Positions 27,303 through 29,110 of a DNA stretch of 64,000 nucleotides are shown here, one piece after another. The DNA is from Escherichia phage TH09: sequence record MT446387.1. One strand, 5' to 3'. Each line of letters begins with the position of its first letter. Position 1 is the stretch's first letter. The notes beneath the pieces were generated by a model. That model saw only the letters and a program-made list of their open reading frames with translations. It did no database searches and was not told the origin of the DNA. The position numbers were made by a program, and so were the translations under genes.

Positions 27303-27908
27303 ATGAAAATGCAAAGTGATTTCAATTCAATGTTTGAAGAGTTCCAAAGACAAGTTGATGTTCCAGACCAATTACTAAATGCTCTTAAACGCATGGCAGA
27401 AGGACGTAATTACTATTGGAGCTCTTCATATGAAACTGATGAAAGTCTTTCTGGATTTTATAAAGGTAAAAAGTCTTTAATACGTCCTGGAATACTCATT
27501 AAAAGTATTGAATCAATTCATTCATTGACGTGTGATTTTGATGTTGAATTTACTGATTTCATTTCTCCTGAATGGACAGTTTGTTATTTAAACGACGATT
27601 ATGATTATCTTGGCGTTTATAGTTTAAGTGACGCATGGTTTAAACGTAATTTACAAAAGTCAAATTTGTTCTATATTGATACTACGGTAAAATTTCAGGG
27701 AAAGAAATATTTCTTTACTCTTATAGTTGACTCTGAAACAAAATATGAAAATAAGCGTATTCTTAGTAAAAAGAATATCTTAACTATCGTTGATGATCTT
27801 TTTGATAAATTCGTGGAAAATCCTAATTTTGAAAGCGATTTATTATTAGAAAAATTTGTTAAGGAATGTAGAGAATATGTCAAAGCCATCACTATACCTT
27901 CCAAGTAA
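27303..27908 (+). CDS. hypothetical soluble protein, first gene of junction-motif array
   Basis: 201-aa ORF; C-terminal ...EKFVKECREY overlaps the start of the next gene. Confidence 0.6.
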   Translation: MKMQSDFNSMFEEFQRQVDVPDQLLNALKRMAEGRNYYWSSSYETDESLSGFYKGKKSLIRPGILIKSIESIHSLTCDFDVEFTDFISPEWTVCYLNDDYDYLGVYSLSDAWFKRNLQKSNLFYIDTTVKFQGKKYFFTLIVDSETKYENKRILSKKNILTIVDDLFDKFVENPNFESDLLLEKFVKECREYVKAITIPSK

Positions 27909-28269
27909 ACCTGTGAAGTATGAACTAAAGCGTCAGCTAATTCCTACTGATGTATTAATAGGTCCTGTGACAGCTATATCATTTGTAATTCTATTGATTG
28001 TTGGAATGGTTATAGACTTTATGACTGATATTGAATCTGGCGTAATATTTTTGTTAGTATTAATTCTTCCATTAGTAGTTCCATTTTTATTGGTACCTGT
28101 AAATTGGGTAGGATATTGGTATCAAGGAAGGCATTATCGTAAACGTGTACGTGAATGGAAAGCTCAGTGTAAAAAGATTAAAAAGGAACACCAGCTTAAA
28201 CTAAATATGTATGAATTTAATGAAATTATGAAATTTGTTAAGGAATCACGATGCAAAAGCCAAAACTAA
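27877..28269 (+). CDS. small membrane protein (array member 2)
   Basis: ATG at 27877 (track starts at TTG 27856); about 130 aa, two predicted TM helices, C-terminal ...MKFVKESRCKSQN. Confidence 0.6.
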   Translation: MSKPSLYLPSKPVKYELKRQLIPTDVLIGPVTAISFVILLIVGMVIDFMTDIESGVIFLLVLILPLVVPFLLVPVNWVGYWYQGRHYRKRVREWKAQCKKIKKEHQLKLNMYEFNEIMKFVKESRCKSQN

Positions 28270-28625
28270 ATAAAGTCAAATATTCTTTTTCTGAGTCATT
28301 TTTAATTTTTGCTGTGGCGTTGGCTGCAGCTCTTGCTGGTAGTCTTATTGGATTAATGATTGACTGTATTATTTTAAACATCCGCAGTAACGTCAGCGGT
28401 ATAGTAGATATAATAGAAGTTTGGAGTGAACTTCATTATACTATAGCGATTTCATTATTTTCATTCTTTGGTATTATTTTATATTTTCATTATGATAATT
28501 TTAAAATAAATTGGCAAAGAAAAAAGGATTACAAAATACAATTAAAAGAATATAATAACTACATGTCTTATATTGAAAATGAATCAATGAAAGAATTCGT
28601 GAATGATTGTAGGAAAATCAAATGA
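28251..28625 (+). CDS. small membrane protein (array member 3)
   Basis: 124 aa, two predicted TM helices, C-terminal ...KEFVNDCRKIK; start overlaps previous gene. Confidence 0.6.
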   Translation: MQKPKLNKVKYSFSESFLIFAVALAAALAGSLIGLMIDCIILNIRSNVSGIVDIIEVWSELHYTIAISLFSFFGIILYFHYDNFKINWQRKKDYKIQLKEYNNYMSYIENESMKEFVNDCRKIK

Positions 28626-29106
28626 TTTTAAAAACTCGCTGGTATGATTTAGATGATGGGGACGATGGCATTTCAGTCGATAGAGTTGACTGGAGCGGCT
28701 GTTCTGAAGATACAAAGAAACGATTAATTAGGGAGTTTAGAATGGGATATCAAGCAGTTAAGCCATCTACTGTAACAGATGATAAATTCGTGTGTATTCA
28801 AAATGGTCGTGCTAAGTTAACGAACGCTGATTGGTTCACAGATAAGAAGGTTATTCTGTGGTATATTATTAGTTTTCCTGTGACATCATTTGTATTTTGC
28901 TTCTTTGGAGAAAGTCCAGTAGGCAGAACGGAAGATTGGATTCTTTTAATTATACTTGTTAATATTTTTACAGCAGCAGTACTATCAGGAATATGGTGCG
29001 TGTTCATTGAAATGCCATGGCGGTTACGTAGGCAGCAAAAGATTTTTGATGAAAAGAAATATACTCAAAATTTAAATAATTTTATCACTGAATGCAGGAA
29101 ATTAAA

Positions 29107-29110
<4 letters not shown>
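28622..29110 (+). CDS. membrane protein (array member 4)
   Basis: 162 aa, soluble N-domain plus two TM helices, C-terminal ...[11 protein letters not shown] whose codons form the SD for nudE. Confidence 0.6.

Follow-up and report, generated by a model that had tools for sequence, protein, structure and literature searches.

A conserved C-terminal peptide on the overlapping early genes e.5, e.4, e.3, and e.2 of T4-like phages: a candidate cytoplasmic docking tail

The e.5–e.2 locus

Escherichia phage TH09 (sequence record MT446387.1) carries four consecutive small open reading frames (ORFs) at positions 27,303–29,110 of the 64,000-nucleotide stretch analyzed here, which we call the window. Over this 1.8-kb segment, the DNA shows 100% identity to the Tequatrovirus vB_CroM_CrRp10, a Citrobacter phage, and the four ORFs are the T4 early genes e.5, e.4, e.3, and e.2, named after their orthologues in the T4 and RB69 annotations. 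The products match PHROGs 2607 (E = 1e-107), 2604 (4e-71), 2330 (1e-61), and 2203 (9e-78), respectively, all of them unnamed families. By tblastn the four proteins are 80–100% identical within Tequatroviruses, while RB69 e.3, e.4, and e.5 are 36–56% identical to those of the window. The order of the genes and their position between e.6 and nudE are kept in the annotated regions of CrRp10, T4T, RB69, and RB32. Compared with T4 itself, the four are direct orthologues in the same order with the same overlaps, and there is no difference at the level of genes; the databases treat them as four separate families without assigned function. No intergenic base occurs from e.5 through the end of nudE, the successive overlaps being 32, 19, 4, and 4 nucleotides (nt), and e.5–e.2 and nudE form one gap-free overlapping run, which is probably translationally coupled. 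The gene e.2 is split in T4 (e.2a and e.2b) and missing from RB32 and T2-type phages; by this comparison of genomes it is a dispensable cassette.

A shared peptide near the four C-termini

All four products carry a related peptide at or near the C-terminus, which we call the tail (Table 1). An earlier note on this DNA had claimed that each of the four genes ends in this peptide. The tails are real, but two of them do not lie at the extreme end: the e.5 tail is followed by an 11-residue extension that overlaps the start of e.4, and in e.4 five residues follow the Arg. Likewise, the consensus given at that time, (K/E)F(V/I)x(E/D)(C/S)R(K/E), fails at its first position in e.2, where Asn is found, and at its last position in e.4, where Cys is found. 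This Cys (..SRC.., position +6 when the motif Phe is numbered 0) is encoded by the TG of the e.3 start codon together with the next base of e.3 (CGA TGC versus ATG CAA, positions 28249–28256), and it is fixed because the e.3 start overlaps its codon. At the DNA level, two consecutive junctions do share the same sequence, as had been noticed: the 16-nt string AAATTTGTTAAGGAAT has exactly two copies in the 64 kb, one in the e.5 tail (27852–27867) and one in the e.4 tail (28231–28246).

The peptide is rare outside this array. When the window is translated in all six frames, the pattern F[VI]x[ED][CS]R has five matches: the four tails and one more (position 53231, FINDSRQ, 23 residues before a stop) that was taken as a chance match. 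The stricter pattern F[IV]xxC[RK], counted over the C-terminal 26 residues of the 109 genes called in the window, was seen three times, against an expectation of 0.02 (P ∼ 1e-6). Elsewhere in the CrRp10 genome (∼164 of 168 kb), no copy of it was found except in one off-frame ORF of 35 amino acids (aa). This genome-wide scan argues that the confinement of the motif to the e.6–nudE neighborhood is real for CrRp10.

Table 1. Positions of the genes, tails, repeats, and other features discussed in the text (window coordinates, except for the last row, which gives loci in other phages by their L numbers)
Feature	Position	Strand	Remarks
e.6	26668..27261	+	197 aa; directly 5′ of the array wherever both are seen together
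GC-rich hairpin GGGGCTTCGGCCCC	27267..27282		between e.6 and e.5
e.5 orthologue	27303..27908	+	soluble, 201 aa (199 aa if ATG 27309 is used); PHROG 2607; C-terminus ...LEKFVKECREYVKAITIPSK
e.5 tail, L-E-K-F-V-K-E-C-R	27846..27872	+	AAGGAA 27861–27866 is the e.4 Shine-Dalgarno site, 11 nt before ATG 27877
e.4 orthologue	27877..28269	+	130 aa; transmembrane (TM) segments 28–46 and 55–73; PHROG 2604; C-terminus ...IMKFVKESRCKSQN
e.4 tail, I-M-K-F-V-K-E-S-R	28225..28251	+	Ser for the usual Cys; AAGGAA 28240–28245, 6 nt before e.3 ATG 28251
e.3 orthologue	28251..28625	+	124 aa; TM 17–35 and 61–79; PHROG 2330; C-terminus ...MKEFVNDCRKIK
e.3 tail, M-K-E-F-V-N-D-C-R	28587..28613	+	AGG+A (28611–28614), 7 nt before e.2 ATG 28622; ATGA overlap
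Direct repeat flanking e.2, left	28606..28656	+	imperfect, ∼50 nt: tail end, ATG, and ∼30 nt of the next gene
e.2 orthologue	28622..29110	+	162 aa; soluble N-terminal region of ∼75 aa, TM 77–95 and 106–124, basic tail; PHROG 2203
e.2 tail, L-N-N-F-I-T-E-C-R	29072..29098	+	AGG+A (29096–29099), 7 nt before nudE ATG 29107; ATGA overlap
Direct repeat flanking e.2, right	29091..29140	+	single hybrid copy retained in RB32 and L009
nudE (Nudix hydrolase)	29107..29547	+	Pfam NUDIX E = 1.4e-13; CrRp10 annotation; closes the overlapping run
Endolysin gene e	29585–30079		after nudE; followed by denV
G-x-W-V-S-S-S-x-x-C array	L002 3231–4026 (RB69 ORF139c–136c); L007 3191–4212; L015 6980–8112; L033 7066–7835		also in many other IMG/VR loci

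Conservation of the tail across T4-like phages

Searches anchored on e.6 and nudE gathered 75 IMG/VR loci, many of them from the same contigs. The counts that follow refer to the first 42 loci plus the window and to the strict motif F[IV]xxC[RK]. There are 110 matches in plus-strand ORFs, and every one of them lies within 20 residues of a C-terminus; none is internal in the 136,819 aa covered. The minus-strand ORFs of the same set, which are mostly non-coding, hold four matches in 48,586 aa. The 104 unique carriers fall into 18 clusters that have no BLAST similarity to one another outside the tail, or into 23 families when variants with Ile, Val, Met, or Ser for the Cys are included. About half of the carriers are two-TM proteins of 100–170 aa and half are soluble.

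In T4-like phages that infect enterobacteria, the carriers cluster in the interval from e.6 to nudE. The tail is found in at least seven host-named groups of T4-like phages, and the proposal that it is constrained as protein has held up well, as orthologues in related phages keep it: carriers are present in RB69, Bp7/MX01, a Klebsiella Jiaodavirus, Yersinia P8, the Enterobacter phages vB_Ent31 and myPSH1140, Citrobacter phage Moon, and Erwinia phage Cronus. In RB69, for example, the tails read ...EQFIMECREYVK... in e.5, ...MEFVKEIRCKS... in e.4, and ...ENFIKECRK* in e.3, and the e.2 tails of Bp7 and MX01 read ...SFIKECRK* and ...EFIEECRK*, respectively. Loci with only remote Nudix matches have no such tails. 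The family-weighted profile is L/I(−3) E(−2) x F(0) I/V(+1) K(+2) E(+3) C(+4) R(+5) K/R/G(+6), ending 0–15 residues before the stop. In terms of occupancy among the 23 families, Phe accounts for 21.7, Ile/Val for 21, Arg for 21.3, and Cys for 17.4, with Met, Ile, Ala, Val, or Ser otherwise at the last of these positions. Because the replacements are of this kind, the profile speaks for this position being hydrophobic and buried, and against a thiol with a role in catalysis or metal binding.

When the windows of each orthologous family are ranked by conservation, the tail comes first to third. The codons beneath it are not conserved in the same way: the Arg is encoded by AGA, AGG, CGT, CGC, CGA, or CGG, the Cys by TGT or TGC, and the Phe by TTT or TTC. 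Because these codons vary while the amino acids hold, the alignments show a constraint that acts on the peptide and leaves the DNA free to vary, with the tail peptide under purifying selection.

Relationships among the four genes

The array had been read as the serial duplication of one module, a description that has support for e.4 and e.3 only, the bodies of e.2 and e.5 being unrelated to these. BLASTP among the four proteins gives nothing significant outside the tail. In profile comparisons by hhalign, run with the tails trimmed (561 comparisons), e.3 and e.4 match over 93 colinear columns with a probability of 82.5% and an E value of 1e-5, or ∼6e-3 after correction for the 561 comparisons, with the TM composition of both proteins as a caveat. 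The e.4 profile also resembles those of other two-TM tail families (F62 at 77%, F37 and F41 at 59% each). The e.5 profile matches only its positional counterparts in other genera (93%), e.2 reaches no more than 19% against the two-TM families, and no soluble tail family matched any membrane family. Junctions 1 and 2, i.e., e.5/e.4 and e.4/e.3, are alike beyond the start codon too (MSKPSLYLPSKP versus MQKPKLNKVKY). Taken as sequence comparisons, these results indicate that e.4 and e.3 are probably old tandem paralogues, and that the tail shared by e.5 and e.2 is not explained by any whole-gene duplication that can still be detected.

Rearrangements with endpoints in the tail codons

Two natural rearrangements in related phages have their endpoints in the tail codons, as comparison of the sequences has shown. 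In RB32 and in the IMG/VR locus L009, e.3 joins nudE directly. The junction is of the e.3 type up to TGYAGGAAA and then continues as the e.2 type, ...TTAAAATGAAAACA, which by its sequence is exactly the product expected from an exchange between the e.3 and e.2 tails. In the window, e.2 is flanked by the two copies of an imperfect direct repeat (Table 1). The alignment score of these repeats is 19, against −4.4 ± 3.7 in 2000 shuffles, none of which reached it; the score of the part after the ATG alone was reached by one of the 2000. The annotated e.3 product of RB32 is itself truncated by a frameshift in an A-run (L008 2700–2760), where 11 A's stand in place of the AAAGAAAAAAGG found elsewhere; judging from the sequence, the gene may truly be a pseudogene, or the frameshift may have arisen as an error in sequencing.

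The second case is a replacement of ∼325 bp within e.2 that distinguishes Bp7 from MX01, with 97–100% identity on either side. Identity resumes exactly at the Phe-Ile codons of the tail (TTT ATT). Both phages are Dhakaviruses (L004 and L005, ∼2648–2972), and it is the C-terminal half of e.2 that has been replaced, the half in MX01 being Tequatrovirus-like; the joint is that of a clean mosaic. From these cases the repeated tail codons are shown, at the level of sequence, as short homology or permitted breakpoints for the in-frame loss or swap of genes.

Topology of the proteins and a candidate docking role

By hydropathy, e.4, e.3, and e.2 are two-TM proteins and e.5 has no TM segment, in agreement with the earlier count of three membrane proteins among the four. 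Lys plus Arg counts (the positive-inside rule) give e.4, e.3, and e.2 an N-in/C-in topology, which places their tails in the cytoplasm, and the C-terminal region of e.4 is basic. The hydrophobic positions of the motif, −3, 0, +1, and +4, form an i, i+3, i+4, i+7 face that is followed by a basic end, and the hydrophobic moment of the tails is 0.60–0.71. In an AlphaFold2 (AF2) model of e.5 with a predicted local distance difference test (pLDDT) score of 62.7, the tail is a helix spanning residues 177–193. The model of e.2 is poor (pLDDT 49.7), and we used it for helical continuity only: its second TM helix runs on through the tail. The alignments behind the models were shallow, as word-indexed protein searches for e.3, e.5, and e.2 returned close relatives only. 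Together, the models and the hydropathy analysis predict the tail to be a cytoplasmic helix of moderate amphipathicity.

Family searches add little to this picture. Neither the four proteins nor e.6 belong to a family in Pfam (local copy), in NCBIfam above the cut-offs, or among the defence and anti-defence families of PADLOC, where the best E value was 0.027, and no solved structure matches the proteins. Protein database entries do carry recent Pfam accessions, PF26876 in the case of e.5 and another, PF26896, in that of e.2, with none for e.3; as the tags differ between e.5 and e.2 and e.3 has none, the common tail is not captured as a domain. The shared tail is not recorded in the family libraries or the literature that we searched, and the literature searches found nothing on these genes or on the motif. 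Two further resemblances are possible and play no part in the argument: that of the hydrophobic(−3)/Phe(0)/hydrophobic(+1) triad to the C-terminal peptide of FtsZ, and that of the RNA at junctions 1 and 2 to a RegA operator.

When taken together, these observations suggest to us, with a confidence only somewhat better than even, that the tail is a cytoplasmic amphipathic docking tail carried by diversifying early proteins that have one partner in common. The tail helix would lie in the cytoplasm, following the second TM segment in e.4, e.3, and e.2 and closing a soluble domain in e.5, and would let fast-diversifying accessory proteins, most of them in the inner membrane, engage a common partner at the cytoplasmic face. 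Candidates for this partner are the tail proteins themselves, the always-adjacent e.6 protein, or a host factor. Several points weigh against this proposal. At least one of the carriers, e.2, is not essential in laboratory hosts, as T4, T2, and RB32 can dispense with it. The amphipathicity is moderate when compared with shuffled tails (p = 0.02–0.1 per tail), and both structure models are of low confidence at the pLDDT values given above. The motif was defined post hoc, and the pattern used for selection accounts in part for the dominance of Phe and Arg in the profile. Because the loci were sampled by anchoring on e.6 and nudE, the confinement of the motif to this neighborhood is partly a sampling effect. 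Finally, the breakpoints in the tail codons could reflect the survival of in-frame recombinants and not a preference of recombination.

The e.6 protein as a possible hub

A more elaborate version of the docking proposal, which we consider possible but distinctly less probable, is that the FIxxCR tail is a portable address tag by which rapidly diversifying early effectors, soluble as well as membrane-anchored, connect to a single conserved hub on the cytoplasmic side of the membrane, possibly e.6, and that new effectors are gained or swapped by recombination within the codons of the tag, which would then be docking element, coupling element, and exchange joint at once. The e.6 gene is by far the most conserved gene of the block and the only one with strong conservation, with 53–100% identity across all loci and a constant length of 197–201 aa. 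Its product looks coiled-coil-like and has a conserved end, EY[IL]xSLK, that resembles the FIxxCR tail. A relaxed match of this kind is expected in ∼4% of proteins, and we regard the e.6 end as a suggestive sequence mimic of the tail, a lead and not a result. No curated family or PDB entry matches e.6. The idea of a PspA/IM30-like protein found no support: a profile search of the PDB gave nothing of relevance, and hhalign gave 0.3% against an E. coli PspA sequence.

Alternative readings of the tail

The tail might instead be a passive recombination scar or linker that is copied and homogenized and has no function as a peptide, which we think rather improbable. Its model would be the PeSLs, intergenic regulatory cassettes consisting of a sigma-70 promoter and a terminator hairpin that occur in the hyperplastic regions of T4-type phages (PMC2839356; Comeau et al. 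2014, PMC4122927), where PeSL-mediated shuffling has been documented (PMC2839356). Like a PeSL, the tail is a short conserved sequence repeated at the gene boundaries of a plastic region, with the endpoints of losses and replacements inside it: both rearrangements, which are independent, have their breaks in tail codons, direct repeats stand on either side of e.2, and junctions 1 and 2 share their 16 identical nt. Unlike a PeSL, the motif lies in coding sequence, it is its amino acids and not its DNA that are conserved, and no promoter or terminator comes with it. Promoter-like sites number 20, versus 19.4 in shuffles, with none at the junctions, and the sole hairpin (Table 1) lies outside the junctions. 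It argues against a passive linker that tails share amino acids but little DNA across genera and families, and even within one genome the shared DNA amounts to only 9–16 nt. Synonymous turnover along with amino-acid conservation, among phages whose e.6 proteins are only 53% identical, points to selection on the peptide.

We give about the same low probability to the idea that the tail is a turnover or targeting tag, i.e., a degron for FtsH, ClpXP, or Lon that times the removal of early proteins, or an in-plane amphipathic helix on the inner leaflet. Such a tag would account for a cytoplasmic, extreme C-terminal position, for basic ends such as CRK, CRKIK, and CRVKR, and for the occurrence of the tail on soluble as well as membrane proteins, and the tail may resemble known C-terminal protease signals. 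However, the distance from the motif to the C-terminus ranges over 0–15 residues, which would be unusual for a terminal degron, and the helix would offer a short hydrophobic face. Stalling of the nascent peptide at the stop was also considered and is disfavored, as the distance from motif to stop varies over the same range.

Peptide versus Shine-Dalgarno signal

The earlier note had also proposed that the tail is constrained as a translational-coupling signal, its Cys-Arg codons supplying the AGGA Shine-Dalgarno sequence for the next, overlapping gene. Carried to its end, this would make the tail conserved mainly as a Shine-Dalgarno site in the Cys-Arg codons of coupled genes, with the peptide a by-product of an RNA signal and of serial duplication. 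Each of the four tail regions does hold a Shine-Dalgarno site for an overlapping start: AGGA lies 11, 6, 7, and 7 nt before the downstream start codon at junctions 1–4, inside the upstream coding sequence in every case. At junctions 3 and 4, the Cys-Arg codons indeed supply it (TGY AGG AAA). At junctions 1 and 2, it is the Lys-Glu codons (AAG GAA) that provide the AGGA, and the C/S-R codons, TGT AGA and TCA CGA, contain none.

We scored Shine-Dalgarno sites by a core of at least 4 nt in the 104 unique tail genes. The site precedes the Cys in 22 genes and covers the Arg codon in 28; in 33 it belongs to a C-terminal extension and in 8 it follows the stop, with no core recognized in 13. It thus occupies at least four different places with respect to the motif, is not bound to the Cys-Arg codons, and falls outside the motif in 41 of the 91 genes with a recognized site. 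When the site lies before the Cys, the next gene starts 7–10 nt past the first base of the Cys codon; when it lies over the Arg, the start is at +13 to +16. The Arg is encoded by CGN, which has no Shine-Dalgarno potential, in 40 of 90 cases, and the motif is retained in tail genes followed by a spacer of at least 40 nt (clusters 7, 12, and 13). Because the site floats in this way, the coupling signal cannot explain the conserved peptide.

The choice of codons does track the Shine-Dalgarno site. AGG makes up 27% of the motif Arg codons versus 3.5% of all Arg codons in the same loci, mostly where it stands 7 nt before an ATG. Where the site lies over the Arg/Lys codon, 18 of 28 cases have AGG, the rest being CGA or AGA followed by GG and one AAG; where it lies in the extension, the Arg is CGT or CGC in 28 of 33. 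As the genes overlap, the next Shine-Dalgarno site must sit in or near the tail codons, and the choice of codons adapts. This adaptation is shown by the codon counts: an Arg that falls 7 nt 5′ of the ATG is encoded by AGG, and with a closer start Lys-Glu is encoded by AAG GAA. The same counts show the peptide as the fixed element, with the ribosome-binding site fitted into whichever codons lie 5–11 nt before the next start.

The doubling of the tail as ribosome-binding site of the next gene is real, secondary, and ordinary for this genome, because about a third of the window junctions overlap: of the 92 same-strand junctions, 32 are overlapping (12 with ATGA) and 19 more have a gap of at most 15 nt. 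Overlapping junctions are thus common in the genome, but no such peptide accompanies them elsewhere. Rfam covariance models gave no match with E up to 1 between positions 26500 and 29700. The Shine-Dalgarno signal as primary cause of the conservation is largely refuted by the sequence data, and we hold it to be quite improbable.

A chance likeness of four AT-rich, lysine-rich C-termini, conceivable for a short motif in T4 proteins rich in Lys, Glu, Phe, and Ile, can be dismissed given the P value in the window, the strictly C-terminal placement of all 110 matches in independent genomes, and the retention of the tail in the orthologues with 36–56% overall identity.

Flanking genes and signals

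The start of nudE lies in the same junction as the e.2 tail, and two candidates compete for it. The T4 annotation uses an ATG within the Glu-Cys codons of the e.2 tail (GAATGC, 29092), which gives a protein of 151 aa; this ATG has no Shine-Dalgarno site. The ATG at 29107 has an AGGA 7 nt 5′ of it, and the N-terminus that it gives (M-K-E-L-S-A-G-I) matches the NudE proteins of other genera. Because this site is present and the N-termini agree, the sequence makes the 146-aa form that starts at 29107 more likely than the 151-aa form.

A sigma-70-like promoter with an 11/12 match lies at 26597–26625, just 5′ of e.6. As far as can be read from the sequence, this promoter-like site and the hairpin between e.6 and e.5 (GGGGC-TTCG-GCCCC) may bound transcription units around the array. 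Two TATAAATA strings occur at 29553–29575, immediately 5′ of the endolysin gene e. We take these to be the T4 late-promoter motif; if they are late promoters, e would be transcribed apart from the e.5–nudE run.

The position of the array next to the endolysin gene had been pointed out before. It provides no functional evidence, with e.2 split or absent in the phages named above, which are viable. None of the four proteins has a lysis annotation in Pfam, NCBIfam, or PHROG, and the genome annotation places holin t, rI/rIII, and Rz/Rz1 in other regions.

A second tail-sharing array, absent from this window, was seen in non-Tequatrovirus relatives between e.3 or e.4 and the next conserved genes (Table 1). 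It consists of tandem small soluble proteins that end in G-x-W-V-S-S-S-x-x-C-stop, usually followed by TAAGGA.

Relation to known systems and significance

The junctions of the array resemble the translational coupling of T4 and other compact phages, with ATGA at junctions 3 and 4, overlaps of 32 and 19 nt at junctions 1 and 2, and AGGA upstream of the starts. They go beyond ordinary coupling in that the same codons serve a selected peptide and a Shine-Dalgarno site and that codon choice has visibly adapted.

The preferred reading, a docking tail, has a parallel in the capsid targeting sequence of the T4 internal proteins, an N-terminal sequence that directs them to the scaffold and that the prohead protease cleaves. 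An ORF of the window itself (30565–31038) starts with MKTYQEFITEA, which we take to be of the capsid-targeting type. In both cases a constant short terminal peptide is carried by variable accessory proteins. The likeness is one of analogy only; unlike the capsid targeting sequence, the present tail is C-terminal and mostly on inner-membrane proteins. The parallel suggests, by analogy, an address or docking function.

The e.2–e.6 block is part of the large uncharacterized accessory genome of T4, which is the phage studied best of all. One C-terminal motif links more than 20 orphan families, so that a single functional class can be made of them. In addition, the array is a clean natural case in which a dozen codons are subject to three constraints at once: peptide function, a Shine-Dalgarno site, and recombination breakpoints. 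The codon signature that results is measurable. If the address-tag version were true, it would suggest how T4-like phages add early effectors without new regulation or localization, and the tail would be the equivalent, at the C-terminus and on the membrane side, of the capsid targeting sequence that the internal proteins carry.

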